Part shown: piece by piece, positions 7,146 through 52,351 of the stretch
How positions within the stretch are numbered: the first letter of the stretch is position 1
How the letters are laid out: each line of letters opens with the position of its first letter
Assembly (NCBI RefSeq): GCF_004010195.1
Contig: NC_057736.1
Location: 13,388,123 to 13,452,122, forward strand
DNA length: 64,000 nt
DNA from: Chiloscyllium plagiosum
Lineage: Eukaryota
Direction of reading: 5' to 3'
Translations under genes and position numbers: made by a program
Notes under the pieces: generated by a model
Told to the model about the DNA's origin: nothing
Seen by the model: the letters and a program-made list of their open reading frames with translations, nothing else
Database searches by the model: none

Positions 7146-7584
7146 AGATGGAAATGTGTTGCTGGAAAAGCGCAGCAGGTCAGGCAGCATCTAGGGAACA
7201 GGAGAATCGACGTTTCGGGCATTAGCCCTTCTTCAGGAATGAGGAAAGTTGGTCCAGCAGGCTAAGATAAAAGATAGGGAGGAGGGACTTGGGGGAGGGG
7301 CGTCGGAAATGTGATAGGTGGAAAGAGGTCAAGGTGAGGGTGATAGGTCAGACTGGGGTGGGGGCGGAGAGGTCGGGAAGAAGATTGCAGGTTAGGAAGG
7401 CGGTGCTGAATTTGATGGATTTGACTGAGACAGGCTGGGGGGAGGGGAAATGAGGAAACTGGTGAAAGGGCTAATGCCCGAAACGTCGATTCTCCTGTTC
7501 CCTAGATGCTGCCTGACCTGCTGCGCTTTTCCAGCAACACATTTCCATCTCTGATCTCCAGCATCTGCAGACCTCACTTTCTCC
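7146..7584. mobile_element. Palindromic mini Penelope-like insertion (two pLTR arms head-to-head)
   Basis: Minus arm 7146-7463, plus arm about 7466-7584; TSD taaacttctataag at 7132-7145 and 7585-7598. Confidence 0.9.
7209..7236 (-). ncRNA. Minimal hammerhead ribozyme motif
   Basis: Reverse complement CTGAAGAAGGGCTAATGCCCGAAACGTC. Confidence 0.75.
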
Positions 7585-8088
7585 TAAACTTCTATAAGGT
7601 CACCTCTCAGCCTCCGACGCTCTAGGGAAAACAGCCCCAGCCTCTTCAACCTCTCCCTACAGCTCAAATCCTCCAACCCTGGCAACATCCTTGTAAATCT
7701 TTTCCGAACCCTTTAAAGTTTCACATCTTTCCAACAGGAAGGAGACTAGAATTGCATGCAATATTCCAACAGTGACCTAACCAATGTCCTGTACAGCTGC
7801 AATATGACCTCCCAGTACTCAATACTCTGACCAATAAAAGAAAGCCTTCTTCACTATCCTATCTACCTGCAACTCCACTTTCAAGGAGCTATGAACCTGC
7901 ACTCCAAGGTCTCTTTGTTCAGCAACAGTCCCTAGAACCTTACCATTGAGTGTATAAGTCCTGCTAAGATTTGCTTTCCCAAAATGCAGCATCTCACATT
8001 TATCTAAGTTAAATTCCATCTGCCACTCCTCAGCCCATTGGCCCATCTGATCAAGATCCTGTTGTAATCTGAGGTAACCTTCTTCGCT

Positions 8089-8275
8089 AGGAAAAAGTGA
8101 GGACTGCAGATGCTGGAGATCAGAGCTGAAAAATGTGTTGCTGGAAAAGCGCAGCAGGTCAGGCAGTATCCAAGGAGCAGGAGAATCGACGTTTCGGGCA
8201 TAAGCCCTCTTTCAGGAGGCTTATGCCCGAAACGTCGATTCTCCTGCTCCTTGGATGCTGCCTGACCTGCTGCGC
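8089..8275. mobile_element. Palindromic mini Penelope-like insertion
   Basis: Arms joined at the hammerhead (8215/8218); TSD taaccttcttcgct at 8075-8088 and 8276-8289. Confidence 0.9.
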
Positions 8276-9757
8276 TAACCTTCTTCGCTGTCCACTACAC
8301 CTCCAATTTTGGTGTCAACAGCAAGCTTACTAACTATACTTCTTATGCTGACATTCAAATCATTTTTATAAATTATGAAAAGTAGTGGACCCGTCACCAA
8401 TTCTTGTGGCACTCCACTGGTCACAGGCCTCCAGTCTGAAAAACAACCCTTCACCACCACCCTCTGTCTTCTACTTTTGAGCCAGTTCTGTATCCAAATG
8501 GGTAGTTCTCCCTGTATTCCATGAGATCTAACCTTGCTAATCAGTCTCCCCCATGGGGAGCCTTGTCGAACTCCTTACTGAAGTCAATACATACAGATCA
8601 CATCTACTGCTCTGCCCTCATCAATCCTCTTTGTTACTTCTTCAAAAAACTCAATCAAGTTGTGAAACATGATTTCCCATGCACAAAGCTATGTTGACTA
8701 TCCCTAATCAGTCCTTGCTTTTCCAAATACTTGTACATCCTGTCCCTCGGGATTCCCTCCAACAACTTGCCCACCACCGAAATCAGTCTCACCGGTTTAT
8801 ATTTCCCTAGCTTGTTCTTACTACCTTTCTTAAACAGTTGCACCACGTTAGCCAACCTCCAGTCTTCCGGCACCTCACCTGTGACTATCGATGATACAAA
8901 TATCGGAGTAAGAGATCCAGCAATCACTTCCCCAGCTTCCCACAGAGTTCTAGGGTACACCTGATCAGCTCCTGGGGATTTATTCACTTTTATGTATTTC
9001 AAGACATCCAGCACTTCCTCCTCTGTAATATGGACATTTTTCAAGACGTCACCATCTATTTCCCTACATTCTATATCTTCCATGTCCTTTTCCACAGTAA
9101 ATACTGATGCAAAATACTCATTTAGTATCTGCCCCATCTTCTGCAGATCCTCACAAAGGCCACCTTGCTGATCTTTGAGAGGCCCTATTCTCTCCCTGGT
9201 TATCCTTTTGTCCTTAATGTATTTGTGAAAATCCTTTGGATTCTTCTTAACTCTTTTTGCCAAAGCTATCTTATGTCCCCTTTTTGTCCTCCTGATTTCT
9301 CTCTTAAGTATACTCCTACTGCTTTTATACACTTCTAAGGATTCATTTGATCTATCTTGTCTATACCTAACATATGTTTCCTTCTTTTTCTTAACCAGAC
9401 CCTCAATTTCTTTAGTCATTCAGCATTCCCTATACCTACCAGCCTTCCCTTTCACCCTAACAGGAATATACTTTCTCTGGATTCTTGTTATCTCATTTCT
9501 GAAGGCTTCCCATTTCCCAGCCGTCCCTTTATCTGTGAACATATGCGCCCAATCAGCTTTTGAAAGTTCTTGCCTAATGCTGTCAAAATTGGCCTTCCTG
9601 CAATTTAGAATTTCAACTTTTAGATACAGTCTATCCTTTTCCATCACTATTTTAAAACTAATTGAATTATGGTCACTGGCCCCAAAGTGCTCCCCCACTG
9701 ACACCTCAGTCACCTGCCCTGACATATTTCCTAAGAGTAGGTCGAGTTTTGCACCTT

Positions 9758-9942
9758 GGAGAAAGTGAGGACTGGAAATGCTGGGGACCAGAGTTGAAAA
9801 ATGTGGTGCTGGAAAAACACAGCAGGCCAGGCAGCATCCGAGGAGCAGGAGAATCGACATTTCGGGCATAAGCCCTTCTTCAAGCTCCTCAGATGCTGCC
9901 TGGCCTGCTGTGTTTTTCCAGTACCACATTTTTCAACTCAGA
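9758..9942. mobile_element. Palindromic mini Penelope-like insertion
   Basis: Inverted arms; TSD ttttgcacctt at 9747-9757 and 9943-9953. Confidence 0.9.
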
Positions 9943-12872
9943 TTTTGCACCTTCTCTAGTAGGTACATCCACATACTGAATCAGAACATTTTCTTGTCGA
10001 CACTTAACAAGTTCCTCTCCATTTGAACCCTTCACACTATGGCAGTCCCAGTCTATGTTTGGAAAGTTAAAATCCCTTACCATTACCACTCTATTATTCT
10101 TGCAGATAACTGAGATCTCCTTACAAGTTTGTTTCTCAATTTCCCTCTGACTGTTAGGGGGTTTATAATACAATCCCAATAAGGTGATCATCCCTTTCTT
10201 ATTTCTTAGTTCCAACCAAATAACTTCCCTCAATGTATTTATGGGAATATCCTCCCGAAGTACAGCTGTAATGCTATCCCTTATCAAAATGCCACTCCCC
10301 CTCCTCTCTTGTCTCCCTTTCTGTCCTTCCTGTAGCATTAGTATCCTGGAACATGAAGCTGCCAGTCCTGCACATCCCTTAGCCATGTTTCTCTAATTGA
10401 TATGATATCCCAGTCCCATGTTGCTAACCATGCCCTGAGTTCATCTGCGTTCCCTGTTAGGCTTCTTGCATTGAAATAAATGCAGTTTAATTTATCAGTC
10501 CTACCTTTTTTCTGCTTTGTCCCTGCCTGCCCTAACTGTTTGACTCGCCTTTGTTCTCAACTGTGCCCCCCCACCTGACTAGTTTAAATCCTCCCAAGCA
10601 GCTCTAGCAAATCTCCCTGCCAGTAGTTTAGTCCCCTTCCAATTTAGATGCAATCTGTCCTTTGTGAACAGGTCACTTCTACCCCAAAACAGCTTCCAAA
10701 GATCCAAAACTATCAATCCTTCTCCCGTACACTAGCTCCTCAGCAACTCATTCATCTGCTCTATCCTCCTATTCCTGCCTCAATAGCTCATAGCACTGGG
10801 AGTAATCCAGATATTACTACTTTCAAGGACCTCCTTTTTAAATTCCTGCCTAACTTTCTGTAATCTCCCTTCAGAATCTCAATCTTTTCCCTTTCAATGT
10901 CATTGGTTCCAATATGTACAATGACCTCATGCTTGTCCCTCTCCCCCTTGAGAACATTCTGCACCCTTTCTGGGACATCCTTGATCCTGGTACCAGGGAA
11001 GCAACACACCATTCTGATTTTTTGTTGCTGGCCACAGAAATGTCTATCTGTACTAGAGAGTCCCCCAACACAATCGATTGCTTGGAAACCGATGTACCTC
11101 TTGTTACATTAAAGCCAGTCCCAATACCAGAAACTTGGCTGTTTGTGCTACATACCCCTGAGTGTCCATCACCCCCTACATTTTCCAAAACAGCATACTT
11201 GTTTGAAATGTGGATAGCACAGAGAACTCCTGCACTATCTGCCTACCTCTTTTACCTTCCCTGGAATTAACCCATCTATGTGACTGTATCTGAGACTTTT
11301 CCCCCTTCTTATAACTGCTATCCATCACATTCCCTTGCTCTTGTGAATTCCTCATTGTCTCTAACTGCCTCTCCAACTAATCCATTCGACCTGATAGGAT
11401 TTGCAACTAACTGCATTTATTGCAGATATAATCCTCAGTAATACGTAAACTCTCCCTAAACTCCCACATCCAACAAGAAGAGCATATCACTCTACTAAGG
11501 GCCATTTTGCTTCTTTCAATCTACAGACCCAGGAAATACCAATGTCTTATTCCTCTACAAAACGCTGCTCCAGGTTAAATGAATACTTATGGCTTGTATT
11601 TTAAGTTTAATCAAGAGACATAGCTCAATAAACATATAATCAAGAAAGAACCCACCCTACTCACTACTGCAAACTTGTTTTAAGGCCGCACTTAAAATCC
11701 ACTTATTTGTTTCTGCGCTGTGACCTTTCCCAAACAGGTTCCTCCAAGATCAGTTGTGAATTTCACTGTTTTTTTAATTTTCCAAGATGCACTCCGATGT
11801 CCAGCGATACATGAATTCAACAACAAAGGCAGTAACTGCTAACGCTGTCAGTTAGCAATGTGAGTTTCTTTCTCTCTCCTGCACTGACCTCACCATGTGC
11901 TTCCTTTGTCTGTTCTTCTCCCTTTTAAAACTGCTGTTGGTTTGAGTTATTTTTTTCTCTGAACTTCAAAAACAATGCAATAGCATATAATATAGTAATT
12001 GCTGCTACTTGAATTCAAGGAAATCACTTCCAGTCTCCAGTTCGTCTACCTTGGATTCCAGTAGGTGCAGTTTTTTTTGTCTCTAAAGGAAAATAAAACT
12101 ACAGTTGTAAAATCTGGCAAATTCTTGTGTGAAGCTCATGGAATGTTGTACCAGTAAAGTATCAGTGAAACTCTAAATAGGAAGAAATTTGTTTTTTTTA
12201 ATATAAAACAAAGGGGTTACCTCTGACCCACCTCAGCAGAAAACTACCTCTTGCAGACTTGGGTCAGATTCAGATCAGAAAAAAGGAGGTAGAACATTAA
12301 TTAGTGATGTAGTCAATGATTGATAAAGACAATGGAATGAAGATTAAGAAACATCCAGCAAAGGAAATTGGTGTGTTTAAGCCGTTTATACTTCAATACA
12401 AAGAGTATTATAAAGAAAGCAGATAAACTAGTGGCACATATATACATGGCAGCACAGTGTTGTTGCTAAAACAGATAGCTGGCTAAAGGAGAGACAGAAT
12501 TGGCAATTTAATATAGACTTTTCAGAAAGGATAGAATGGGTGACAGAAAAGGAGTTATGGGTAGCAGTGTTAGTTAAAGAATCAATTACAGTTGTGAGAA
12601 TGGATGGCATACTAAATAGGCTTTATAGATTGGGTTTAGGAATCAAAACGGGGCAATCGTGCTACTAGGAGTCTCTCAACGATAGACTCTCAAACAGCGA
12701 GAGGGAGATAGAAGAAATATACGTAGACAAATTTCTGCCTGTAGGAATAAGAGGGCAATAATAGGATAAAAAGGGGTAAAAACAATGACTGCAGATGCTG
12801 GAAACCAGATTCTGGATCAGTGGTGCTGGAAGAGCACAGCAATTCAGGCAGCATCCGAGGACAGGCAAAATC

Positions 12873-12900
12873 GATGTTTCGGGCAAAAGCCCTTCATCAG
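12873..12900 (-). ncRNA. Minimal hammerhead ribozyme motif
   Basis: Reverse complement CTGATGAAGGGCTTTTGCCCGAAACATC. Confidence 0.7.
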
Positions 12901-13012
12901 GAATAAAGGCAGAGAGACTGAAGCGTGGAGAGATAAGCTAGAGGAGGGTGCGGGTGGGGATAGAGTAGCATAGAGTACAATAGGGCGGTGGGGGAGGAGA
13001 TGAAGGTGATAG

Positions 13013-13419
13013 NNNNNNNNNNNNNNNNNNNNNNNNNNNNNNNNNNNNNNNNNNNNNNNNNNNNNNNNNNNNNNNNNNNNNNNNNNNNNNNNNNNNNNNN
13101 NNNNNNNNNNNNNNNNNNNNNNNNNNNNNNNNNNNNNNNNNNNNNNNNNNNNNNNNNNNNNNNNNNNNNNNNNNNNNNNNNNNNNNNNNNNNNNNNNNNN
13201 NNNNNNNNNNNNNNNNNNNNNNNNNNNNNNNNNNNNNNNNNNNNNNNNNNNNNNNNNNNNNNNNNNNNNNNNNNNNNNNNNNNNNNNNNNNNNNNNNNNN
13301 NNNNNNNNNNNNNNNNNNNNNNNNNNNNNNNNNNNNNNNNNNNNNNNNNNNNNNNNNNNNNNNNNNNNNNNNNNNNNNNNNNNNNNNNNNNNNNNNNNNN
13401 NNNNNNNNNNNNNNNNNNN
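13013..13419. other. Assembly gap (N run)
   Basis: Run of n. Confidence 1.
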
Positions 13420-13756
13420 TCTTTGCGGAAGGCTGAGAGGGGTGGGGAGGGAAATATATCCCTGGTGGTGGGGTCTGTTTGGAGGTGGCGGAAATGTCGG
13501 TGGATGATTTGGTTTATGCGAAGGTTGGTAGGATGGAAGGTGAGCACCAGGAACGTTTTGTCCTTGTTGCGGTTGGAGGGGTTTGGTCTGAGGGCGGAGG
13601 TGCGGGATGTGGATGAGATGCGTTGGAGGGCATCTTTAACCACGTGGGAAGGGAAATTGCGGTCTCTAAAGAAGGAGGCCATCTGGTGTGTTCTATGGTG
13701 GAACTGCTCCTCCTGGGAGCAGATACGGCGGAGGCGAAGGAATTGGGAATAGACAA

Positions 13757-14093
13757 GCGGCACAGTGGCTCAGTGATTAGCACTGCCACCTCACAGCGCC
13801 AGGGACCCAGATTCAATTCCAGCCTTGCGTGACTATGTGGAGTTTGTACATTCTCCCCATGTCTGCATGGGTTTCCCCAAGATTTCCTCCAACAGTCCAA
13901 AGGATGCACAGTTTAGGTGGATTTGCCATTCTAAAATTGTCTATGGTGTCCAGGGGTATATAGACTAGGGTGATTAGTCAGGGAAATGCAGGGTTACAGG
14001 CATAGTGTAGAGGGTGGGTATGGGTGGGATATTCTTTGGAAGGGTTGGTGTGGACTTAGCCCACTTCTGTACTGTAAGGATTTGATTATTCTA
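13757..14093 (+). mobile_element. tRNA-derived SINE (HE1-like)
   Basis: A box tggctcagtgatt, B box gattcaattcc, CR1-like 3' tail; homologous to the other SINE copies. Confidence 0.85.
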
Positions 14094-15352
14094 CTTTAAC
14101 TATCCCAATATGAACTGGGTTTCAAAAAATATAAGGGGCATTAAGGGTGAAAAAGTCATGTACTCAATCCAGGATTTTTTTTTAACAATATGTGACAAGC
14201 CCAAATGGAGGAAATGCCATTCTTGATCTATTTTGGGAAATGAAGAAAGGCCAGTGAGTAAAGTGATAGTGGGTGACCATATTGGTTAGATTTAGTATTA
14301 TTATGGAAAATTACAAAGATAAATCAGAAGTAAAAATTTTTAACTGAGGGAAGGCAAATTTTATAAAATATGACTCTATGAGAAGGATTTGGCTGAGGTG
14401 GACTGGACAGAACTGTTGAAGGCTAAGTCAGTAGTAAGCCAGTGGGAGACATCAGAAAGTCAGATCCTTGGGTCAAAGCAGACATGTCCTCTCCAAAAAT
14501 AAGGAAGATACTGTCAAATCTATACCCCCATCATTGTCTAGGAAAATGCAGGGATGATTAAACCTAAAAACAGAGCTTATGATAGTCACAAAAAAACTCA
14601 TTACCACAGATAGCCTAGAAGAGTACAGAAAGTACAGTGATCAAGTAAAAACATGAAATAAGGAAATCAAAGAGAGGGCATGAAAAATATTAGCAAGCAA
14701 GATGAATGAAAACCCAAAGACATTTTACCATTTTATAAACTAAAAGGATAGGTAAGAAAAAAAGTGGGACCTATCAAAGATGAAGAAGGGAACTTGTGTG
14801 AAGATGCGGAGAATATGGGAAGCCTGGCTAGTCAGCACTTGGAATACTATGTGCAGTTTTAGTCTTCTTGCCTCAGGAAAGATATGATTGCTGTAGAGGA
14901 AGTGGAACAAAGGTTCACCCGACCTGTTCCCAGGATGATACGACTGTCTTGTGAAGAGACATGGGCAAACTGGCCCTGTATTCTCTGCAGTTTCAAAGAA
15001 TGAAAGGCAATCTAATTGAAACCTAGAAAATATTTAAAAGGATATACAGGGTAGATGCAAATGAGATTTCTCCTTGGATGGTGAGTTTAGAGCATGGGGC
15101 ACAATTTAAAAATAAGGGGATGTATTTAGAATTAAGATAAGGAAACTTTTTTTACTCAGAGGATTGTGAATCTTTGGAATTCTCGACCTCATAGGGCTGT
15201 GGAAGCTCAGTCTTTGAGGATATTTAAAGTAGAAGTTGTGAAAGTGGAGATGGAGCCTAAAGAGAGAGAGAGAGAAATATGAAAGGGGAGACTATGGATA
15301 GCAAGCTAGGACAGAAGAAAAGCTAAATAAGTGATAATAAAAGTTAAGAGTA

Positions 15353-15674
15353 TGGAATCACAGAATCCCTACAGTGTGGAAAGAGGCCATTCTGCCCAGC
15401 AAGTCCACACTGACCCTCTGAAGAGCATCCCACTCAGACCTTGTCCCCTACCCGCGTAACCCTGCATTTCCCATGGCTAATTCACCTTAACCTGCTCATC
15501 ACTAGACACTACAGACAATTTAGCATGGTCAATCCTGCACTTTTGGACATTGGGAGTACATCAGAACAGCCAGTGAAAAATCATTCAGACACAGAGAACA
15601 TGCAAACTCCACAAGGCTGGAATCAAACCCGGGCCCCTGAAGTTGTGAGGCAATAATGCTAATCACTGTGCCGC
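15353..15674 (-). mobile_element. tRNA-derived SINE (HE1-like)
   Basis: Reverse complement homologue of 13757-14093. Confidence 0.85.
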
Positions 15675-15824
15675 TATACTGCCCAAAGTAGGAGTAGGAG
15701 AAAATGTGTGAGCTGTAATGAATGCAATCTGTGTAATGTGATAACAGGCGTAGGACTTCCTGCAAATGGGTTACTGTGCTAAAAGCACAGGATTGGGTGT
15801 GGTGTGGGTAAAAACATGGGAGAC

Positions 15825-16590
15825 TAGAATCAGGCTCTAAATTTAGTGAACTTCATGTTGAGTACTAGAGGCTCAAGAATCCCCAAGCAGAAAATTAGAC
15901 TTTGTTCCTTAAGCTTGCACTGAGACTCACTGGAATACTGCAGCAGATCTGCACCAGAAACATTGGCCAGGGAGCATGGCGGTGTGTTGAAGTGGCAAGC
16001 AACTGGAGGCACAAGGTCATTTTTGCAGATAGAATGTAGGAATTTTGCAAAGCAGTCACCTGCTTCATCTCCCCACTCTACAGGAGACAACATTGTGAAC
16101 AGTGAATGCAGAAGATTAGATTGAATAAAGTACAGGTAAATTGCTGTTTCACCTGGGAGGTATGTCTAGGGCACTGTATTTTGAGGAGATGGGAGGTCAA
16201 AAGGCAGGTAAAGCACTTCTGCGATTGTCTGAGATGTTGGGAATGGAGGAGTAGACCAGTGTGTCCCAGAGTGAACAGTCTCTGCAAGGGAGAATACTGA
16301 TAAGGGAGGCGATGGATATGGTGGCTTACAGTCGTTTGGATGTGGTGGCTGGTGGGCTGATAAATGAAGACTGGGGACTCTATCATTGTTGTGGGAGAGA
16401 AGGGAAGGGAAAGGGTGAGGGCAGAAGTGCAAGAGATGGGTCAAACACAGCTAAGGGCCCTGTCAACCATGGTGGCAGGAATCCTTGGTGAGGAAAAATA
16501 TGAACATTTCTGAGGCCCATCCCCCTTCACGGAAGGTGAGATCCTAAGAAAAGGTGGGACAGAGATGGAGAAACTGGGAGAATAGGAATT
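15825..16590 (-). mobile_element. Old Penelope-like fragment (GIY-YIG region)
   Basis: FTCTLFNLIFCIHCSQC, PVACHFN and LIFCLGILEP resemble ORF 4807-5556. Confidence 0.75.
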
Positions 16591-17039
16591 TCTAAGTTTA
16601 TTTTAAACTGATGTTACCCTCTACTACTCAAATGTATAGCCTTTACATAATTTTTCGGATTACTGTAAAAAGTTTTTGAAATAAAATGGGAAACTGACTA
16701 TTTTTATTGTGTCCGAGTTTGCCTTGACCCACCCCCGGGTTACCTAGGTAGCATCTAGGGGATTTATTCCTGAGAACATTATTAACTGTAACGAAGTTTA
16801 ACAGAAAATGAGCAGAACAAAGGGTTCTCTGAGGCTCCTGCAGTCTGTTAGAGAGGTAATTCAAACATTCAATCAGGTGGAAAAAAACACAAGCAGCTTA
16901 TAAATTAATATGGCAATTAGTGTGAAGCAACAGACAAGCAGAATAAATGGAAAGTACACATTTAATAAGTTGATGCTGAATTTTTAACGCAACATCTTCT
17001 TGCTCCTGAAGCAACTACCAGAGGGAAGAAAGTTGACAA

Positions 17040-17372
17040 CTGTGGGAACCGCGCCTGCGCAACCACATTTCGTTCCCCCCCCAACTACCATGACTGCACT
17101 TGCGCACCCAGTCTTCCAACTGCAATGACTGCGCATGAGTCCTTCGCCTCACCACGACTGCGCCTGCGCATCCGCCACCGGTCTCACCACTACTATGACT
17201 GCGCCTGCGTACCCACTGCCCATCTCTCCGCCACAATGACAGCGCTCCCATTTCGCTCCGCACTGAGTCGGCGCGAGGAGCCGGGAGGTAGCGCGAGAGG
17301 AAGCAGCAGAAGTGGCGCGTGCGGAGCGGCGTTGGTTCCGGCGTTTCAAAACGAACCGACATCAATCAAAAC
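17040..17372 (+). promoter_or_regulatory. AK2 CpG-island promoter/5'UTR with clustered NRF1-like motifs
   Basis: CpG-rich; GCGCCTGCGCA-type motifs within units starting at 17051, 17090, 17125, 17154, 17195, directly upstream of the ATG. Confidence 0.8.
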
Positions 17373-17471
17373 ATGAGTCCAGGAGCTGGCAAGGAACCGA
17401 GAGCGAGTCATGTCCAGAAAGGGATCAAGGCCATTCTGCTGGGGCCACCCGGGGCAGGGAAAGGCACACAG
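17373..17471 (+). CDS. AK2: Adenylate kinase 2, coding exon 1
   Basis: MSPGAGKEPRASHVQKGIKAILLGPPGAGKGTQ (P-loop); donor gtgagg at 17472. Confidence 0.96.
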
Positions 17472-18499: not shown

Positions 18500-18960
18500 T
18501 TCATCAGCCACACCTAGATTGGCTAAATCTTCCTTTTTTGAACATGTGGAGGCATCTCGAACTTGGGCACATAGTTACAGAATAAGTGAACACTCATTTT
18601 TAAACGGAACTATGAAGGACTTTCTTCTCCCAAAGGGTGGTGAATGTTTAGAATTCTCAATGCCAACACTAGATGTTAGCCTGAAATGTTGTGGAGTTGG
18701 ATCATTGAAGAGAAGGTAGATTTTGAAATATCAGGGAATTGACAGCTATGCTAAACTCGATAAAATGTGGCGCTGCTGCCCGAAATATTGACTCTCCTCC
18801 TCGAATGCTGCCTGATCTGCTGTGCTTTTCTCCAGTGCCATATTTTATCGACTCCAGCATCTGCAGTCTTCACTATCTCCTAGCTATGCTGAGCTAGCGT
18901 GAAAGAGAAGTTGAGGCCTGGAGCCATGGTCTTGTTGAATGGTGGATGCATGTTTGAGAA
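18500..18960 (+). mobile_element. CR1 3' fragment containing a mini PLE insertion at 18753-18881
   Basis: CR1 3' end similarity; PLE arms tcgataaaatgtggcgctg / cagtgccatattttatcga; TSD agctatgct at 18744-18752 and 18882-18890. Confidence 0.75.
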
Positions 18961-21137: not shown

Positions 21138-21263
21138 GCTCAAAGGCTTGCAGACCACTACAATGTCTGTCACTTAGCAACAGGTGACATGCTACGAGCA
21201 ATGGTGGCATCAGGATCAGAATTAGGTCTGAAGTTGAAGAAGACAATGGATGAGGGCCAACTT
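21138..21263 (+). CDS. AK2: Adenylate kinase 2, coding exon 2
   Basis: [42 protein letters not shown]; tttag acceptor, gtaagt donor. Confidence 0.97.
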
Positions 21264-29656: not shown

Positions 29657-29920
<264 letters not shown>

Positions 29921-34600: not shown

Positions 34601-34703
34601 TAAAGCTAGATTCTGAACTGTATACATCACCAATAAATGGTGCAGGTTTCTAACCTGCATTGTGTCCTTCAACCCTGCAAAGTTGGGGCTAAATTGGCTG
34701 TGC

Positions 34704-38858: not shown

Positions 38859-38866
38859 CCATCTGA
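38859..38866 (+). CDS. AK2: Candidate alternative terminal exon of AK2 (AK2B-like), coding part
   Basis: Branch-point-like tacttaac plus polypyrimidine tract tttcag|CC ATC TGA; joining to internal donor T|gtaagg at 31490 gives ...GAAS-I-stop. Confidence 0.55.
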
Positions 38867-41017
38867 AAATTATGATGCCCGAGACACACTTTTCCCAGCC
38901 ACCAATGTGCCAACAATCAAGGTTTATTATGTCAAGTTTATATAATGTTGAAGGGGATGGTGGTGGTAGGTTACAGAATGTAGGAGGGGATGTTGGTGGG
39001 TTATGAAAGTGCAATTCCATTTTAAAATTCTGGTTTATTATTATTGGGATTTATGAGGGCTTTTCAGCAATCAAACTTTTAAACCATTTTATTTTATTGA
39101 TCATATAATAGGAAAAGGAAGTATTTGTGGGGGTAGTGCGAAATCTAATTTTGTGTAAAAATCCTGAGCTAATTACTGCCCACTTTTTTTTTCCTTGCTC
39201 TGATAAAAGTGCACACAGTATTACACTTTTTGGGGTCACTGTGTAATGAAGGGCATGACTGTTACTAGTATCAAATGCTTTTCAAAAAGAATATTAGTTA
39301 TGATTGAACAATAAAGTTAAAATAGTTGCATTGACTCTGGTATTACTAGAGTTTGGTCCAGCTGATTACAGCTCAATTTTAATATTCATGTCAATAAAAA
39401 GGATAATTCATCACTGTTATTTTCATTTTATAAATATATTTTTACTAACTTGGAGATGACTATTTTTGAAATGCATAATTCAGAATTGATCAGTCATGAT
39501 GAAATATTGAGTGCAAAGGCAGTTTAACTGCGAGCATAGTTTTAAAATGTGTGCCGAAAGAGATTGGACATTTCAGTCCTTTTCAGTATGAAATCTAGAA
39601 TTCAATAAATACTAGTGTGACTCAGCATAAGCTTTTCTGTTGAATCTTTTATTAAATTGATTAATGATATGTGTCCACTAAAATATTAACCATTGTACTT
39701 TATAGTTACAAGTGTTAAAGAAAAGGTTGACCTAAATTAATTATCAAGCCACCTGGTTAATGATCCTTTAGCCTGACTGAAGAATCATGTTAACACTTGT
39801 CCCCCATGTAACATGAGGTATAGCAGATGTGTCAAGTTATACTACAGATGTCTAAGTAGCTGATTCTCGACTGTATTTCCTCCATGTCTCCAAACTAATG
39901 TCAAGGATGCGTTCATTAAAACGTCCTGGGCAGTTTGATGCTTGGACACTCCATGCAGATTTTTGAATAACCCCAGTCTGTATTGACTTTTAATTCAGTT
40001 ATTAAAAGCAAACTGCTGATGCTGGAGATGTCTGGTGGCTTTTGACAGAGAAACAATTAATTCCAATATGACTGTTCTCTGGAACTCCTGTTTATATAAG
40101 TATTGTTTGACTACTGTCTAACTTGGAACATGACTGAGAATCATGAGGTTTTCATTTCTGTTGTAACCTTCCGTGGTGGTCCATATAGCTGCAGTATGTG
40201 TATATCAACTTCAAAACAAACTGAGTTTCTACAGATGCGATTGGAGATTTAATGGCAGGTTAAAGCAACATTGGGTTCAAGTATTAATGCTTGTTGCATG
40301 ATTGTAACATTTTTATGTGATTAAAGAGCAAAATTAATTGTTGAGGGTTTCAACTTTTAGAAGCCTTGAATTACCCTAAATAAGAAACATCTTCACACAT
40401 TAATTTTATTTAAAACACTTGAAAATTAAATACTTTCAAAATTTTGACATTAAAATGGGGCGCAGGCGAATGGTGTGGAAGAAACTGACTATGGTTGAAA
40501 AAGAACCTTTAGGTCCTACAGTTTGTTTTGTACAGTAGTCAGCAATTGCTTATACATTCAGTGTAGAAGTGCTAGTTTATGTTGCAAGCAGCTGCTGTGG
40601 GCATGACTCCTCTGGTATTATCTGAAGCTTCAACTATTACAGGGTGGGACATTGAACTACAGGACCTGGCATGCATGCCTAGGGCTGGGGAGAAAGGTTG
40701 GCAAATGCAGATTAGATAGGTGGGTTGGGTGGGGACTTGGAGGTGCTATGCTTATGGGATTAATGAGGACTACTTGAAGGGTTTTTGATGTTTGGGGATT
40801 CACCTATGTGGCCAGGCAGGTACAAAGAGACTTGCATGAACATGATAGTCAATAGTGAGCATATATTAGATTTAGAATAGCCTTTATTGTCACGTACTTT
40901 TAAATGCAGTGAAAACTTTGTAATGTTACCGTTTTGGTGCCATCTTAGTTACAGGATACATAGATACAGATGCAGCACTCAGTTACAGAATTGAAATAGG
41001 GGTTGGTAACTAATGAA

Positions 41018-41344
41018 AGTGAGGTCTGCAGATGCTGGAGATCAGAGCTGAGAGTGTTGCTAGAAAAGCACAGCAGGCCAGGCAGCATCTGAGGAGCAGG
41101 AGAATTGACATTTTGGGCTGGAGCCCTTCATCAGGAAGGGCTGAATGTATGAGCAATTGCTGACCGCTGTAAACAAAAAACCTGATGGACCTAAAGGTTC
41201 TTTTTCAACAAAGTCAGTTTCTTCCATACCATTCGCCTATGCCCCATTTCAACTTCAAATTCATCATTCCTGATGAAGGGCTCAGGCCTGAAACGTTACT
41301 TCTCTGCTCGTTGGATGCAGCCTGACTTGCTGTGCTTTTCCAGC
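41018..41344. mobile_element. Palindromic PLE insertion enclosing an inverted copy of local DNA
   Basis: Arms 41018-41137 (-) and 41262-41344 (+), hammerhead motifs at 41107-41134 and 41270-41297; TSD aactaatgaa at 41008-41017 and 41345-41354. Confidence 0.85.
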
Positions 41345-43319: not shown

Positions 43320-45725
43320 AAGATAGCATGGAGAAGACCCTACAAGAGAGTCGGTGGTTCTAGACCTAATTTTAGGCAATGAGGCCGTGCAAGTGGCTGA
43401 AGTATCAATGGGAGAGCATTTTGCAGATGGCGATCCTAATTGTTAGTTTCAAGATTGTTATGGAAAAGGACAATGATGGGCCTAAAATCAGAGTTTTAAA
43501 CTGGAGAATGGCTAATTTTAATACAATCAGATATCATTTGACCAGAGCGGACTAGGAGCAGATATTTTTGGGCAAATCTGTGTCAGATCTGGGATGCATT
43601 TACGAAGAAAATAAGAAGAGTACTGTATCAACATGTTCCAATAAAAATACTGGGTAGGCCCAACAAATCCAATGAACTACTGACGTCAAAGAATGTGTAG
43701 GATTGAATAAAGAGAAAAAGGGAAGCTGATGACAGGTACCAAGGGTTTAAAATAGCAGAAGATCTAAAGGAAGTATGTGAAGAGCAAAAGATGAGGGAAG
43801 ACAAATATAGGTTCCTTACAACTGAAACAGGAGAAGTTATAATGGGAACCAAAGAGAAGGTAGACAAATTACCTACATATTTTGGTTCTGATTTCACAAA
43901 GAACACATAGTCTCCAACACATTTTTGGGATGATATGTGGTCTAGTGAGAGAGAAAAACAAAAGGAAATCTGTTTTAGTAGGGAAATGGTGGGAAAATCA
44001 AGAGGATAAAGACAAACAAATCATCACTCCTGATAATCTGCATGCCAGAGTAATTCAGGAAGTGGTCCAGAAATTAGTGGATGCATTTGGTGGTCATCTT
44101 TCAAGACTTATGGATTGCAGGCTCATTAGTTTTTGCCTCACTATTTTAGAAAGGAGGTAGAGAGAAAACAGAAAGTTATAGACCAGTTAGCCTGACATCG
44201 ATAATATAGAAAATGCTAGGGTCACTTATTAAAAAAATTAATAAGAAAGCATTGGAAAACTGACAGGATCAGACACAGTCAACATGGATTTACGAAAGGG
44301 AAATCATGCTTGACAAATCTATTGGAATGTTTTGAGGATATAGCTAGTAGAGTTGATAAGGGGGAATCTAGTAGATGTGGTTAACTTGGACTTTCAGAAG
44401 GACCCATGTAAGAAATTAGCATGTAAAATTAAAGCGTACAGCATTGGGGGTTGTGTACTGACATGGCAGACAGGAAACAGACTAGCAATAAATGTGTCAT
44501 TTTCTGAGTGTTAGCCAATGATCAGTGGGGTACTGCAGGGATCAGTGCTTGGACCCCAGTTATTCACTATATATATTAATGGTTCAGATGAATGAACTAA
44601 ATATAATAACTCCCAAATTTTCAGATGACACAAAGTTGGGTGGGAGGTTGAGGTGTGAGGGTACTTCACTGACCTCAGGTGAAGTGCCAGATGTCTGGAC
44701 GACAGCTAATGTGGTTCCTTGGTTCAAAAATGGCAGAAGGGATAGGTTAGATAATTAAGACCAGTTAGTCTGATGTCTTTGGTCAGGAAATTATTGGGAA
44801 AAGTCCTGAACGGCAGGATTAATCAAAATTTGGGAAGACAGGGATTGATGAGGGATATTCAGCACAGATTTGTTAGAGGGTGATTCTGCCTGATTAATTG
44901 AGTTTTTTGAAAAGGTGACTGAATATGTTGATGTGTTTTGCTGGACTTCAGTAAGGCCTTTGACAAGGCTCCACGTGGAAGGCTGGTCCAAAATGTAAGA
45001 ACTCATGGAATCCAGGGCAAATTGAAAAACTGTATTCAAAACTGTCGTGCAAATAAGAAGCAAAGGATGATGGTGGAAGGATGGTCCGGGTAGGATGTTC
45101 TTTAGAGGGTTGGTGTGGACTCAATGGGCCAAATGGCCTGCTGCCACGCTGATTCTATAATTCTAGAATGTAGGATCAAGGAAGGCTTGTTACAACTTTG
45201 TAAAAGATTGCTTAGACCACAGATAGAATACAGTGTGATGCTCTGGCCAGCCACACTAATAGGGACATGATTGCACTGGAGAGGGTGCAGAGAAGATTCA
45301 CCAGATGTTGCCTCGGATAAAAAGTCTCAGTCACAAGGAGGGACTGGAAAGGCTGGGTTTGTTTGCAGAGAAGATTGACTGGGAATCTATACAGCATTAT
45401 GAGAGGTATAGATAGAGCAGATCATGAGAATCTCTTCCCCATGGCAGATGTGCCAAAGACCAGAGGGCATAAGTTTAAGGTGAGCACTATTGGTTTAGCG
45501 GAGATCTGAGAAAAATCTTTCTCACCCAGAGGGTGGTAGATATATGGAATGTGCTGCCTGAGAGGGTGGTGGAACAGAAATTCTCATAACATTTAAGGAA
45601 TACTCAAATGAATGCCAGGGCATAAAAGGCTATGGACCAAGTGCAAGTAAATGGGATTAGTATAGTTTGGCATTTGTTGGTCAACATAGATATGGATGAC
45701 TGAAGAATCGGTTTCTATGCTATAT
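43320..45725 (+). mobile_element. Composite degenerate CR1 LINE fragments, with a SINE tail at about 45086-45165
   Basis: KFSDDTKLGG and GEVPDVWTTANVVPWFKNG motifs; CR1 3' end. Confidence 0.75.
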
Positions 45726-46832
45726 ATGATTACGACTACAGATGCTGGAGAACTAAAATAAAAAACAGAAAGTTGTGAAGAAACCCAGCCACGTCCGTGG
45801 AGAGAGAAACAAATTTTAGGTTGTGTCCGACATGTGTCTTCAGAACTGAAGAGAAGTGGAAAAGTAATAAGGTTTTTATGTTGTTGAAAATGATGGGGAG
45901 GAGGTGAGTTTGTTTTGTTTCATTAACTCATGACAAAATATAGATTGAGTCAATCATTTATCAAATTCTGTAATACTTGAGCCAATCATCACTATAACAC
46001 ACCGTGGGACAGTAAATGTTTAACTGATTAGCCTGGGTTTTGAAAACTTGGAGAAGTTCACATCCTGAGAGGATTGGAAGTTATATCGCTTTGCTGAAGC
46101 TAATGCTATAACAGTACGATTCTACCAGACAATAAGGGACATTGACTGTACTGAATGTGCAATCTGAGCTGGTTGACATCAAACAAGACATTCAGCAGAC
46201 TAATGTGCTTTATGTTATGCTTAAGCCAATATTACAACCTGGACTTTGAGAGACAAGTCTGCAATGTCTCTGGGCTTTGGGTATCTGCACATGCACTGAC
46301 CCTGACACTGTTTGCTTCTTATCTCTAAGTAAAGCTCTTCAACTTGTTATAAACTGCGTGATTCTTTATTTACATTTATACACAGTCGGTTATCGAATAG
46401 AGCTCTCTGGACCAGTGGTTTTCAACTTGTGTGCCATGAGAACTATCCAAGTGTGCTGTGAAATTTTGTACAAAGGTAATGAAAAACAATGTAAAACAAA
46501 CATTGTTTCATAAAGTCATACAGCACGGAAACAGACCCTTCAGTCCAACAAGTCCATGCCAAACATAATGCCAAATTAAACTAGTCCCACCTGCCTGCTT
46601 CTGGCCCATATCCCTCTAAACCTTTCCTATTCATGTACTTATCCAAATATCTTTTAAACATTGTAATTGCATCCACATTCACCACTTTCTCAGGAAGTTC
46701 ATTCCACATGCGACCAGCCTCTGTGAAAAAATGTGGTAAAAACAATGACTGCAGATGCTGGAAACCAGATTCTGGATCTGTGGTGCTGGAAGAGCACAGC
46801 AATTCAGGCAGCATCCGAGGACAGGCAAAATT

Positions 46833-46860
46833 GACGTTTCGGGCAAAAGCCCTTCATCAG
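46833..46860 (-). ncRNA. Minimal hammerhead ribozyme motif, canonical core
   Basis: Reverse complement CTGATGA-A-GGGC(TTTT)GCCC-GAAA-CG-TC. Confidence 0.8.
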
Positions 46861-47345
46861 GAATAAAGGCAGAGAGCCTGAAGCGTGGAGAGATAAGCTA
46901 GAGGAGGGTGGGGGTGGGGAGAGAGTGGCATAGAGTACAATAGGTCAGTGGGGAAGGAGATGAAGGTGATAGGTCAGGGAGGAGAGGGTGGAGTGGATAG
47001 GTGGAAAAGGAGCGGGGCAGGTCGGACAAGTCCGGACAGGTCAGGGATCGAGTTGCTGGAGGTTAGAAGCGAGGATGAGGTGGGGGAAGGGGAAATGAGG
47101 AAACTGTTAAAATCCACATTGATGCCCTGGGGTTGAAGTGTTCCGAGGCGGAAGATGAGGCGTTCTTCCTCCAGGCATCTGGTGGTGAGGGAGCAGCGGT
47201 GGAGGAGGCCCAGCACCTCCATATCCTCGGCAGAGTGGGAGGGGGAGTTGAAATGTTGAGCCACGGGGCGATTTGGTTGATTGGTGCGGGTGTCTCGGAG
47301 ATGTTCCCTAAAGCGCTCTGCTAGGAGGCGCCCAGTCTCCATAAG

Positions 47346-47513
47346 ACTCATGTGTTGCACTGTGTATAATAAACTTCACTACAACACTCCTGTGTTACAG
47401 TGTGAATAATAAACTTCATTATAACACTCCCGTCTTACAGTGTGTATAATAAACTTCACTACAATACTCCTGTGTTACAGTGTGTATAATAAACTTCACT
47501 ACAACACTCCTGT
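47346..47513. repeat. 40-bp minisatellite, about 4 copies
   Basis: Unit tgtgtataataaacttcactacaacactcctgtgttacag at 47361, 47401, 47441, 47481. Confidence 0.92.
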
Positions 47514-49244
47514 AGGGCATCTTTGACCACGTGGGAAGGGAAATTGCGGTCTTTAAAGAAGGAGGCCATCTGGTGTGTTTTATGGTGGAACCGCTCCTCC
47601 TGGGAGCAGATACGGCGGAGGAATTGGGAATACGGGATGGCATTTTTGCAAGAGGTAGGGTGGGAAGGGGTGTAATCCAGGTAGCTGTGGGAGTTGGTGG
47701 GTTTGTAGAAGATGTCAGTGTCAAGTCGGTCGTCACTGATGGAGATGGAGAGGTCCAGGAAGGGGAGCCAGGTGTCGGAGATGGTCCAGGTAAATTTAAG
47801 GTCGGGGTGGAATGTGTTGGTGAAGTTGATGAGTTGCTCAACCTCCTCGCGGGAGCACGAGGTGGCGCCAATGCAGTCATCAATGTAGCGGAGGAAGAGG
47901 TGGGGAGTGGTGCCGGTGTAATTACGGAAGATCAACTGCTCTACGTAGCCAACCAAGAGACAGGCATAGCTGGGGCCCATACGTGTGCTACCCCTTTGGT
48001 CTGGAGGAAGTGGGAGGATTCAAAGGAGAATTTGTTAAGGGTGAGGACCAGTTCGGCCAAGCGAATGAGAGTGTCGGTGGAGGGGTACTGTTGGGGACGT
48101 CTGGAGAGGAAAAAACGGAGGGCTTGGAGGCCCTGGTCATGGCGGATGGAGGTGTAGAGGGATTGGATATCCATGGTGAAGATGAGGCGTTGGGGGCCGG
48201 GGAAACGGAAGTCTTGGAGGAGGTGGAGGGCGTGGGTGGTGTCTGTGAAAAAATGTGTCTCTTATGCCTATTTAAAATCTCTCTCCTCTCATCTTAAAAA
48301 TGTGCCCCCAAATCTTGAAATCCCCCATCCTAGGGAAAAGACAACTACTATTAAATTTATCTATTCGTCTCATTATTTTACAAACTTCTATCAGACCACT
48401 CTCAACCACCTAGGCTCCAGTGAAAAAAAGTCCCAGCCTATCCAGCCTTTCTTTATACCTCAAGTCTTCCATGCCTGGCAACATTCTGGTAAATCTCTTC
48501 TGAACCCTCACCAGCTTGATAATATCCTTCCTATAACTGGACAACTAGAACTGGACACAGTATTCCAAAAAAGGCCTCACCAAAATTACAACTCATAAAA
48601 CTGGTGAAAATTAATTATCAAAATAAAAATGCAGTTTTTTTTAATTTCCAGTACGTGAGCATTCTAAACTAGATGACCAAAAGGCAAAATTCAAATAATG
48701 TGATAGTTTTTACCTGTTATACTGGAATAAGACAAAACGAGCTAATGTTAGCATAGGTAGCTAAATTGACCATATCCACATTTTTTTCCAAAATTTATTT
48801 TGATACCACTAGTCTAAGAAGAAATGGATAAGTTTGTTGTCAAAAGAGTGAGTACCTTCACTAATTCAGTTGTTAATGAAAAATCTGAACCCTTCCCGCA
48901 AAAAAAAAGCCAGAACTATTCAGAAATTAAGAACTGTCTGGTTTCTGGATTTTTGTGGAAAAGGGATTTTTTTTCCCCTTACCTGAATTTTTCATCTTCA
49001 GACTGAAGTTGGAAAGAGCTGCGATAGTACCTTGTAAATTAAAATTCCATTTGCATACAGAAATCCATCTCTTGTGAATAAAGACATTCAGTACTTCCAA
49101 ACACTTGAAAGGACAAAGCATGGAGCAGGCCCAATGTCTGATGGAGTGTGCAGTTATCAATTAAAGCTCAAGAGGCTAGTTAACTGGTGGCTGAACTTGT
49201 AGCAAAATCAAAGAAGCTCTATACCTTTGCTGAAACCTTAATTA

Positions 49245-49297
49245 GCGCTGAAAGTGTGTTGCTGGAAAAGCGCAGCACACCCCAGGTCATCGAAGAT
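49245..49297 (-). mobile_element. 53-bp micro-insertion of PLE tail plus filler
   Basis: gctgaaagtgtgttgctggaaaagcgcagca; TSD tgaaaccttaatta at 49231-49244 and 49298-49311. Confidence 0.8.
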
Positions 49298-49637
49298 TGA
49301 AACCTTAATTACCCCTGCATGTAAAAATAATCATAGGTGTGACGTTAAGATTTGATGCCGCAAAACAGATCAACAAAATTCTTTTCTCTGATAATACAGT
49401 TGTCAGGAACAACAGAAAAAGAGCTCTTGTCAGTGGAGCGAGATTTGTAGGCAAGCCCAGGTTATACCACTGACCCAGTAAATCACAATTTACTGTACTT
49501 TGCATTTTGCTCTGATCCATTGAACTTCAATTGCATATCAGTTCAATTATTTAATAAAAATTGTAACTTAAAAATATTGTTACAAATGTGAAATGTCATC
49601 CTCAAAATTTGGACTCCTGAACTGCGTGTAGACAAAT

Positions 49638-49927
49638 TTAGATTAGATTTCCTACAGTGTGGAAACAGGCCATTTGGCCCAACAAGACCATACCAACCCT
49701 CCAAAGAGTAACCCACCCAGACACATTTTCCTCTGACTAATGTCACCTAACACTATGGGCAATTTAGCATAGCCAATTCACCTAACCTGCATATCTTTGT
49801 GACTGTGAGAGGAAACTGGAACACCCGGAAGAAATCCGCAAACTCCACATAGACCCGATGCTGGAATTGAATCCAGGTCCCTAGCACTGTGAATCAGCAG
49901 TGCTAACCACTCAGACACCATGCAGCC
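49638..49927 (-). mobile_element. tRNA-derived SINE (HE1-like)
   Basis: Homologous to 26605-26889. Confidence 0.85.
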
Positions 49928-52190
49928 AATGAATAGTTAAAGATAGTTGAATTGAGCAGATCTTAAAAATGTGTGCTCGCAATCGAAGACAGTCTGTTTC
50001 TTCCAGCGGATTTGAAACTTTAATGTATTCGATTCCTTCTTTAACTTGTATGCATTATGTTGCAAACCGCTCTAGTAAGACTGTAACCAGAGTAAATGCA
50101 ATAAATGTGATGTTTATGAGCAAGAAATTGAGCTGAAAAAGTGGGTGTGTAGTGCAATTGTTTGTCGCATTGAAGTGTGTATTTTGTTCCTGAAAAGATT
50201 GGCTCTGCTGTAGTGCAGTGTCTAAGACCTCTCTTGTCACATGCTCACTCTGGATAGGTGCCCTTTTTCTTACTGTAGGTACCTCATTAGTGCATGAATC
50301 TCATTTTACCACATTCCAGTGTCTCGACTTTGGTTCTGAGAAACTGCACTTTAATTCACTGGACCTGGGTCAGCCCCAGTGCCTTAGCAGGCAATGGGCA
50401 GTAGGAGAAAACCCTACCATGGAATCCTTGAACAACAGGAAGAGATAAAACGGTGTGAAGAGTGAATACAAAGATGGCATTCAATTTGCAGGGATGCTAA
50501 TAAAATGATCATTCCCAACTGGGCTACAAGGGTGTGATTCCCATCCGCCTCATTCAGTATTTAAGCATAAGGCAGCTCAATCTGATGCGTTACGGGAGCT
50601 TTTCCAATCGATAAATTGGAAGTCAAAATAAATCTAAATGTTCACCCTGTCTGGTTTAGAAAGTGATTTATTTCCAGATTAATGCAGAGGAATTCCACTG
50701 GCGTCACAACAGAAAGGAGCTTTCTTTGTGACGTCTCGAGCAGTTTGCGCATCCGCAGCTTCTCAATGGCTAACGATAAATGGAAAGGAAGATCTCAATC
50801 CAGGGTAAGCCACAATAGAGGAAGAAAAGCAAGGAAAAGCCAGGGCTAAATAAAACATCGCGACCCGCCACTGTGCTGCAAGACTGGCCCAGACAGGGTA
50901 AGAGAAGATTCTGTATTTGAATGCACAACTGTATTTTGAACCCATGCAATAAATTAATGCATGTCAGCAATTGCTAGAGGTGTTCAAAACGCTGCAGTTT
51001 CTCCCCGTAGCACCCTTCCCTTGAAATGCATCGTTCTTGAAAATCTCTATCTATTCCAATGCAATGCAATCCTAGAGAGGAACAAGGTTAGACATTTTCC
51101 AGAGATTTTGCCAGTTTGCTGAAACATTGAGACAGATGTGAATCTGAAAATGAGTTATAATTAATGCAATAGGAAATGGATCTGATATTGACATCATCAC
51201 GATTTGCAAAAAGAAAGGCTGCTTGTATTTGTAGGTTGTGTTTGCTCAGTACCTTGTACATGGTTTACCTATTCCCACGGTTCAGTTTCTGCTAAATTGC
51301 TTCAATTTCTGTTGCAGGTGAAGGTCAGTTTCTGAAATAAATATTATTTTTGGGTTCTCGGACCTGTAGTTCATCTTTGCTACCAGCTTTGAAAATAGGA
51401 ATTATATCGTTATGAGATGGCATAATTTTGTCGACAAAGACAATTTTGTGGGGGGGGGTCAATTAATGATTGACATAAACTCTTTCCTGCTGTTTCTTAA
51501 AGAATAGTGACATACCAAGACGTATAATTGAACGTGATGTTGACCAGCAAAGTGGTTGTCATGGTGATTACAGTAATTGCCTCATATGCGGGACATTTTA
51601 ATTTAGAATGCACCAATGGCTGGAAGCCTTGATCTGGTGCTATGTAACGCGACTCCAGGAGAATGCACGTTTGCACCATTCAATTGAATTTAACAAAACA
51701 TGATCAATTCCTTCCCGCAAATGATGAGGTGAGCGTTTACAAACGTGTGCTGTAGACTATATAAAAACTGGAACTTTTCTGTGGAGATGAAAGCATTTGA
51801 GAAAACCCAACAAGGATTTGACTTTTACACCGATATGTGAGGAAAACTTCAGACCATTAGAGAAAATTATGCCCCACCTATCCTAAACTTTAATAATTTA
51901 CATTCAAAAACTTTTTTTTTACCACAGTTTACACCATTGCTTTGTGGTGGTTGAACTCTCACATGATGTTGGTAGCTTCCTGGTTCCTTGCTGATGCTGG
52001 CTCTAGTGTGTCTAATGGGAAGTGTGGGAGGTCACTCAGCAAGCTCGATTTTAACTCCTTCGTTCCATGTCCACGGGAAGCTTGTGCAAAACATCCTGCT
52101 TGATGTTCCACTTTTCCCACCCTGCAATTGTTTATGAGTGCTGGTGCTTATTGCAATTTCCCTACCTTTACAATTACAGGATAATCTAGT

Positions 52191-52351
52191 TTGAAAAATG
52201 TGTTGCTGGAAAAACACAGCAGGTCAGGCAGCATCCAAGGAGCCTGAAATGTCGATTCTCTTGCTCCTTGGATGCTGCCTGACCTGCTGTGCTTTTCCAG
52301 CAACACATTTTTCAGCTCTGATCTCCAGCACCTGCAGTCCTCACTTTCTCC
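52191..52351. mobile_element. Palindromic mini Penelope-like insertion
   Basis: Inverted arms; TSD caggataatctagt at 52177-52190 and 52352-52365. Confidence 0.9.

Follow-up and report, generated by a model that had tools for sequence, protein, structure and literature searches.

Penelope-like element (PLE) insertions with an inverted, 5'-truncated pseudo-long terminal repeat (pLTR), a tail of 30-40 bp and a target-site duplication (TSD) are known (PMC8557442, PMC3846280, PMC2377424). Here we examine a group of such insertions in a 64,000-nucleotide stretch of Chiloscyllium plagiosum DNA (assembly GCF_004010195.1, contig NC_057736.1, positions 13,388,123 to 13,452,122 of the forward strand; referred to as the window), whose parent is, to judge from the coding remnants described below, an endonuclease-bearing PLE. 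They share with known endonuclease-positive PLE insertions the head-to-head arms, a tail at one end, TSDs, heavy 5' truncation, assembly gaps at inverted repeats and a hammerhead in the pLTR, but differ in that most copies here are only 150-250 bp long and have no open reading frame (ORF). While this architecture is known, we add a fixed inner limit of the arms associated with an extra G, a strict one-tail rule and a route by which palindromes are re-copied, none of which we found reported in the open-access literature (subscription papers, including early Penelope work, were not covered). We consider it probable that the target is cut with a stagger and both of its nicks act as primers, each at a fixed site on one RNA, that the cDNAs run off the 5' end of this RNA, which is likely to be capped, and that the resulting palindromes are occasionally re-copied. 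The later steps by which PLEs would acquire their inverted pLTRs and one-sided tail are called unvalidated in the cited work, and these palindromes make a little-understood copying cycle testable.

The Poseidon element of Anolis (PAc) has been studied in vitro, where two internal starts of reverse transcription bound the tail, both strands are nicked and extended, a dimer is predicted and uncut RNA serves as substrate (PMC11167929). The two tail-bounding starts match the outer arm ends at +58 to +68 and +97 to +99 found here (numbered from the hammerhead cut, see below), an ATG lies in the hammerhead region, and no reads were found at the cut site; the ORF of the anole element starts in stem II, as does the ATG frame at 6971-7081 of the window. 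The portion of the PAc paper examined (PMC11167929) does not address inversions, the 5' end of the RNA or the joining of two cDNAs. The present element differs from PAc in its Neptune/Nematis-type Cys linker and in having ends with a short target overlap.

The two cDNAs of L1 twin priming cover different, adjoining parts of the RNA and the first is primed on the poly(A), whereas here both cDNAs are copies of a single segment, with starts that lie 36 nt from each other, and twin priming in this sense is not what we find; that both arms copy one segment had been claimed in a preliminary description of the window and is borne out by the arm coverage. L1 is alike in that a second nick primes on the RNA, in the inversion with small junction insertions or deletions, and in the untemplated G at complete 5' ends (PMC4859970). 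PLE remnants in Schistosoma include pairs of minimal hammerheads on opposite strands 100-700 bp apart and many single motifs, as here, but under the model put forward there, of self-cleavage and circles, ends would be expected at the cut, where our data show no enrichment (PMC4209133); an analysis of the TSDs, breakpoints or mechanism of the dual motifs is absent from the portion of that paper examined. Non-LTR retrozymes (bioRxiv 10.64898/2026.07.22.740005) are comparable in that this genome, too, contains non-autonomous PLE derivatives with a hammerhead, in the form of short tandem units. Retrozymes are arranged head-to-tail, whereas the amplified units we report are head-to-head with variable and asymmetric ends. 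Miniature inverted-repeat transposable elements (MITEs), which transpose as DNA, have symmetric ends that do not vary; they are alike in that some of the palindromes here have been amplified as units.

Paired arms and the one-tail rule

The pLTR carries a predicted hammerhead ribozyme, and all arm positions are numbered relative to its cut in the copy at 6783-7083 of the window, with 0 the last base before the cut (window 6984) and -31 corresponding to 6953. The hammerhead core, stem II and a palindromic ACGU are present by sequence, although a scan of Rfam matched no family to it at gathering score.

6953..6988, plus strand: predicted minimal hammerhead with a CUGAnGA core, 4-bp stem II, GAAAC/GUC and a weak stem I of 3-4 bp; cut after 6984

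The six insertions named in the preliminary description were all found, each with a TSD, and are listed here with a single arm and a long form of the same architecture.

7146..7584: head-to-head insertion, tailless long minus arm (inner end -257) and tailed short plus arm (-21 to +98) with 2-nt microhomology; 14-bp TSD at 7132-7145 / 7585-7598
8089..8275: head-to-head insertion, tailed minus arm (inner end -29) and tailless plus arm (-18 to +40), blunt junction; 14-bp TSD at 8075-8088 / 8276-8289
9758..9942: head-to-head insertion, tailed minus arm (inner end -26) and tailless plus arm (from +10); 11-bp TSD at 9747-9757 / 9943-9953
18753..18881: old head-to-head insertion, inverted left arm of about 20 bp and tailed right arm from near -12, read by eye as the script called no pair; 9-bp TSD at 18744-18752 / 18882-18890
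41018..41344: head-to-head insertion with a 121-bp filler (41139-41259) between arms whose inner ends lie at -31 and -37; 10-bp TSD
52191..52351: head-to-head insertion, tailless minus arm (inner end +10) and tailed plus arm (inner end about -10); 14-bp TSD at 52177-52190 / 52352-52365
2827..2952, plus strand: single tailed arm starting at -28, with a short degenerate TSD (9 bp exact)
4542..7083: long form, 2.2-kb tailless minus arm (4542-6780) and tailed plus arm from -200; TSD of up to 17 bp

The arms had been described as overlapping and pointing outwards between TSDs of 9-14 bp. The TSDs are real but that range is not typical (see below), and the arms at 41018-41344 do not overlap, being held apart by the filler, which is an inverted copy of nearby host DNA (40443-40561, 85.8% identical and about 450 bp away). 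The set was also incomplete, as it lacked 4542-7083, an insertion built in the same way from an arm of 2.2 kb and another that stops at -200. As the arm at 4542-6780 and its inverted partner (to 7083) lie within one TSD, the short palindromes belong at the lower end of a size continuum with this long form, which has the known inverted-pLTR-plus-tail architecture of PLEs. We note that several palindromes are nested close together in one older repeat (4209-4528 and 7085-9750, also at 61025-63104), and that copies at 12765-13012 and 46725-47340 belong to a second subfamily with another tail end (+86/+88) and other upstream sequence, the first of these meeting an assembly gap.

We sampled 1.6 Mb of the genome by position (30 blocks from 29 contigs), making 1.66 Mb with the window, and realigned arms to 31 long reference copies with self and partner excluded, retaining 362 of 367 candidates and discarding five. 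(An initial histogram of BLAST starts was abandoned in favour of these references because its pile-up came partly from subfamilies that diverge upstream of the motif.) The sample contains 79 head-to-head pairs, which extrapolates to some 170,000 in the genome as an order of magnitude (from 79 in 1.6 Mb), and 62 pairs have a TSD of at least 10 bp, compared with one of 150 random position pairs; the duplication measures 13-16 bp in 48 of the 62. Every one of these 62 TSD-bounded pairs has exactly one tail, on the left in 30 and on the right in 32, with a length of 36-40 nt. The outer ends are bimodal in the main subfamily, falling at +58 to +68 and at +97 to +99, and single arms with a TSD end at either site.

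If two RNAs were primed freely, about half of the pairs would be expected to have one tail, and the 62 of 62 observed therefore fits a single RNA primed at two fixed sites, so that the two RNAs tethered by an ACGU dimer put forward earlier are not needed. The arms of a pair also come from the same source, agreeing at 248 of 258 diagnostic sites in 33 young pairs compared with 4,835 of 8,024 (60%) between pairs, a level of agreement reached by none of 5,000 permutations. These results point to priming that took place twice in a coordinated way, either on a single RNA or on RNAs of a common source locus, and they support the suggestion in the preliminary description that both target nicks prime reverse transcription. 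Inward reach could be compared in 51 pairs, with the tailless arm longer in 28, the tailed arm longer in 15 and the two level in 8. Both outer ends overlap the target by 1-5 nt above chance, with no difference between tailed and tailless ends; an apparent excess of overlap at tailless ends was rejected as an artefact of references ending at +98 (corrected p 0.25, with 21 and 19 scorable of 28 each).

The inner limit and the 5' end of the RNA

Counts of inner ends exclude the 27 of 362 arms that abut assembly gaps, and as these are mostly long, short palindromes are over-represented in the assembly. The statistics are based on 138 young arms, of which 25 end beyond -60, 7 at -60 to -34, 45 at -33 to -27, 34 at -26 to -1, 4 at 0 to +5, 17 at +6 to +32 and 6 further out. 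The 45 ends in the seven bases from -33 to -27 (a count slightly inflated by three overlap-misassigned arms) contrast with 7 over the next 27 upstream bases (binomial p 3.6e-24), and the peak at -31/-30 recurs in three subfamily groups. Exact matches with one 3' anchor, counted over the whole genome, give 35,633 copies reaching -27, 21,160 reaching -31, 15,396 reaching -32, 12,470 reaching -33 and 10,669 reaching -35, with the steepest one-base drop from -31 to -32; as -35 is the farthest upstream point counted, the sample figure of 7 of 138 ends in -60 to -34 stands in for a whole-genome count beyond it. A second peak at +11 to +19 was dismissed, coming mostly from a distant family that shares only +17 to +50 with the pLTR, and from old copies. 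The sample blocks C24:25739, C28:22771 and C6:24514 contain this distant family and are a source of the false breakpoint peak.

Breakpoints had been said to cluster at the ribozyme in each insertion, and clustering does exceed chance, but the ends are concentrated at the upstream edge of the motif and not throughout it, and an arm ends between -33 and +5 in only 44 of the 62 TSD-bounded pairs. We found no excess at the cut site (4 of the 138 young arms at 0 to +5 compared with 10 in the 23 flanking bases, p 0.33), which upholds the earlier claim that the templates were uncut at the hammerhead, and no excess at the downstream foot of the motif among young arms. Reverse transcriptase (RT) moves 3' to 5' on the RNA and a stalled RT would stop at the downstream foot of the structure, where ends do not accumulate; instead, the ends accumulate past the whole motif at a one-sided limit with an extra G, and the stalling proposed in the preliminary description is not supported. 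Read-through of the motif by RT is seen in 25 of the 138 young arms, and also in the families of amplified junctions described below. A one-sided limit with a trimmed downstream tail is the shape expected from run-off followed by end joining.

The base preceding -31 in the whole-genome set is the templated C in 15,396 copies, G in 3,444, A in 1,634, and T or N in 686 (by subtraction), while before -30 there are 818 G and 1,999 T, giving an odds ratio of 12.3 for -31. The preference for G over T is thus seen before the presumed complete 5' end and is reversed one base further downstream. Inspection of the first 40 G sites on contig C1 placed the G in filler in 17 (a lone G in 4), in sequence shared with the partner arm in 14 and in the TSD in 6, with 3 left unassigned; after the partner-derived third is removed, G is still about three times as frequent as T before -31. 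In L1 and SVA, an untemplated G is generally taken to show that a cap has been copied (PMC4859970). Taken together, the limit and the extra G suggest that the RNA starts at -31 and is probably capped. Window position 6953 (an A, at -31) is the first base of stem I of the hammerhead and lies within TCATTCC, which is initiator-like; a downstream promoter element is not claimed, as the spacing does not fit the consensus. The possibility of a splice acceptor at -31, an idea taken from D. virilis, was rejected as there is no AG at this position and no common upstream exon in 40 sites. A splice-acceptor-like pyrimidine tract followed by AG does occur about 55 bases upstream of the cut (window ~6915-6930, plus strand) and is loosely kept across subfamilies, and there is no breakpoint pile-up at this site.

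Junctions and probable re-copying of palindromes

Among 68 close junctions, 30 have a filler of at least 3 nt, 21 have 1-4-nt microhomology, 7 have a 1-2-nt filler, 6 are blunt and 4 show a longer apparent overlap, with the fillers of at least 3 nt often copied from the adjacent arm. This spectrum is like that of microhomology-mediated end joining. The preliminary description had asked whether junctions are unique or shared, and most are one-off: only one of 65 recurs within the sample, and recurring simple junctions fall in different subfamilies. Two junctions, both in the youngest subfamily, have been amplified (17 and 309 copies), apparently by retro-copying.

The junction at 7146 in the window has one exact match on contig C7 (locus L256), with a different 15-bp TSD and 98.1% identity over the 322-bp arm, the highest among the loci compared, and that at 52191 has one near-identical match (with a mismatch) on C33 (L301), with another TSD. 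It should be noted that these sister matches are not proof of re-copying, as about one convergent match is expected for each (rough estimate). The junction at 8089 has 14 others within two mismatches which carry different subfamily variants (7 inspected), and the junction at 9758 has three relatives that differ at the junction itself.

Of the amplified junctions, junction B (L283-L299) is present in 17 copies, 14 of which have their own TSD of 13-17 bp, with the tail on the left in 7 and on the right in 7. Five copies are palindromes of 166-216 bp that resemble those in the window, and the number of additional tandem units in the family ranges from 0 to 2. A variant at +7 is specific to the left arm, being retained in 6 of 16 left arms and in none of 17 first right arms. 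Junction A is found in 309 copies and was confirmed as the true junction in all 25 that were fetched (L258-L282, e.g. L199 and L208); the left end of these lies at +97 in 10 and at +55 to +66 in 15, and for 8 the locus includes a TSD. Behind the far arm, 10 of the 25 have the same host flank and 4 have another in common, which we interpret as 5' transduction from one or two source loci. Both families were reached via top hits and their count gives no share of all palindromes.

Many copies of one internal structure, as in MITEs, are seen in the two junction families, while 64 of 65 junctions occur just once within the sample. Terminal inverted repeats that are fixed and symmetric, with uniform ends, are not found, the ends being asymmetric and varied even among copies sharing a junction. 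The variable ends and the carried host flank point to retro-copying of read-through RNA rather than DNA transposition or the spread of a DNA MITE. Head-to-head junctions can therefore pass through an RNA stage, and repeat libraries may file such PLE derivatives as DNA MITEs.

Copying scheme, rival explanations and the parent element

In the scheme we favour, the two nicks of a staggered cut would each start reverse transcription on the same RNA, one near +98 and the other near +62. The cDNAs would run off the RNA 5' end, which is probably where capped transcripts begin, at the first base of stem I. A transcript has the priming signal twice, once in its 5' pLTR and once in its 3' pLTR; priming in the 5' copy would leave only 90-130 nt to copy and give stumps, while priming in the 3' copy would give long arms. 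The two minus-sense cDNA ends could not pair and would be trimmed and then joined by microhomology or filler synthesis, presumably through host end joining. A palindrome might occasionally be transcribed by read-through from its flank, in which case the first cDNA would cross the old junction and the second could anneal to the first, re-copying the palindrome at a new site with freshly chosen ends. We would give even chances to the more specific version in which a dimer of the RT/endonuclease uses both nicks to prime synthesis on a single capped RNA, at fixed sites 36 nt apart, producing the tail and inverted pLTR. In this version the palindromes could then become mobile themselves, being retro-copied from read-through RNA with an unbroken junction and two newly chosen ends, and would form MITE-like families spread by a retroelement. 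The scheme makes sharp predictions: an RNA start site, RNA that is capped and uncut, one template primed at two sites, and a ribozyme that does not set the breakpoints.

Several points weigh against it. The target overlap of 1-5 nt at the outer ends is unreported in the portion of the in vitro work used here (PMC11167929), one RNA and two RNAs of one source locus are not directly separated by our data, and the limit is spread across -31 and -32. The partner arm could supply 14 of the 40 inspected Gs, and an RT adding C at any template end would also yield G, making a hard 5' end firmer than a cap. The RNA data come from single-cell poly(A) sequencing in a related species and from contigs, and no start site was seen in the one raw-read run that mapped, where loose ends at 6953 in 131 reads are read-through junctions. 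Helix I marks the end of an intron, and not a transcription start, in D. virilis (PMC4209133, PMC2377424), indicating that the layout is not universal. Finally, the far arm of the re-copied family keeps its own variants to at least +39, so the second cDNA adds little sequence, and priming on the first cDNA or on antisense RNA fits this family as well.

A hard but uncapped 5' end at -31, made by another cut or by a 5'-3' exonuclease halted by stem I, with RT adding an untemplated C on run-off, is the main rival and would account for the limit and the G equally well; it fits -31 being exactly the first base of stem I and no RNA start being seen in the run that mapped. We nevertheless consider it unlikely, as stem I has 3-4 bp with a mismatch and is missing from predicted minimum-energy folds, which would make it a poor exonuclease block, and -31 lies within the TCATTCC mentioned above. 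The original proposal, in which RT stalls at the hammerhead and the nicks prime two RNAs joined by an ACGU hammerhead dimer, seems improbable, even though 79 of the 138 young arms end in -33 to -1, minimal PLE hammerheads are built to act as dimers (PMC4209133) and a predicted two-copy fold pairs around ACGU. The ends lie past the whole motif and not before it, with 4 of 138 at 0 to +5, and it is at -31 specifically that the extra G is found. Long arms and amplified families show that RT can get across the motif and even across much longer hairpins. The presence of a single tail in all 62 pairs demands coordinated site choice, and hammerhead mutants left insertion products unaltered in vitro (PMC11167929). 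Equally improbable as a general account is a single priming with subsequent fold-back or self-priming, the latter perhaps on antisense RNA in the way suggested for rotifer PLEs (PMC3846280), which would explain identical arms and the fillers copied from the adjacent arm. A fold-back copy cannot exceed its template inward or gain a tail, so that fold-back from the tailed arm cannot produce the 28 of 51 pairs in which the tailless arm is longer (e.g. 7146-7584 and 4542-7083), and single arms are found at both outer sites; fold-back is contradicted for these 28 pairs and may apply to some of the other 23.

The remaining explanations have little to recommend them. Hammerhead self-cleavage of the template is very improbable as the origin of the ends, for while a few arms end at 0 to +3, there is no excess at 0 to +5 (4 compared with 10, p 0.33, as given above) and most short arms retain 20-31 bases upstream of the cut. 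Cut-and-paste spread of the palindromes as DNA MITEs would account for two junctions having been amplified 17 and 309 times, but it is contradicted by outer ends that vary, a tail that switches side, TSDs of 13-17 bp, a varying number of units and the carried host flank, as well as by only one of 65 sampled junctions recurring within the sample, and we give it hardly any credence. The chance that the pile-up itself is an artefact of upstream subfamily divergence and of assembly gaps at long inverted repeats is negligible: the naive BLAST pile-up was partly of this kind, the +11 to +19 peak came from a distant family and 27 of 362 arms lie at gaps, but the limit persists when references are matched by subfamily, among pairs bounded by a TSD and when exact matches are counted over the whole genome, and such an artefact cannot create the G bias.

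The parent element is represented in the window by decayed frames in the minus arm (4810-6183) which match RVT_1 (E 0.037) and then GIY-YIG (E 3.9e-4), both below the Pfam cut-offs.

4810..5565, minus strand: putative GIY-YIG endonuclease remnant with a C-x4-C-x2-C linker (Pfam PF01541, E 3.9e-4, 21.1 bits, cut-off 22.6)

The C-x4-C-x2-C motif fits the CX2-5CxxC linker of the Neptune/Nematis clade, and by this linker the element appears to be of Neptune/Nematis type. Six sample loci run past +98 into common internal sequence, with the tail leading on into the body of the element, and there are tandem derivatives, in keeping with a pLTR at both ends of the unit. An intact full-length element was not found among the copies retrieved; of 30 loci with internal continuation, 19 end at assembly gaps and the other 5' ends are scattered from -230 to +53. 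Long arms (L167-L185) often stop in a C-rich tandem-repeat stretch in the ORF, no more than some 280 bases upstream of the inner end of the window arm, which may reflect query bias. At 6971-7081 of the window (plus strand), and in homologues, a frame of 37 or more codons starts at the ATG of the stem II loop and runs through the tail. Very young, non-autonomous retrozyme-like units of about 224-320 bp, arranged head-to-tail, are found at L186-L215 and in sample block C23 near 40490-40870, each consisting of the pLTR and a short piece of the 5' body with one hammerhead.

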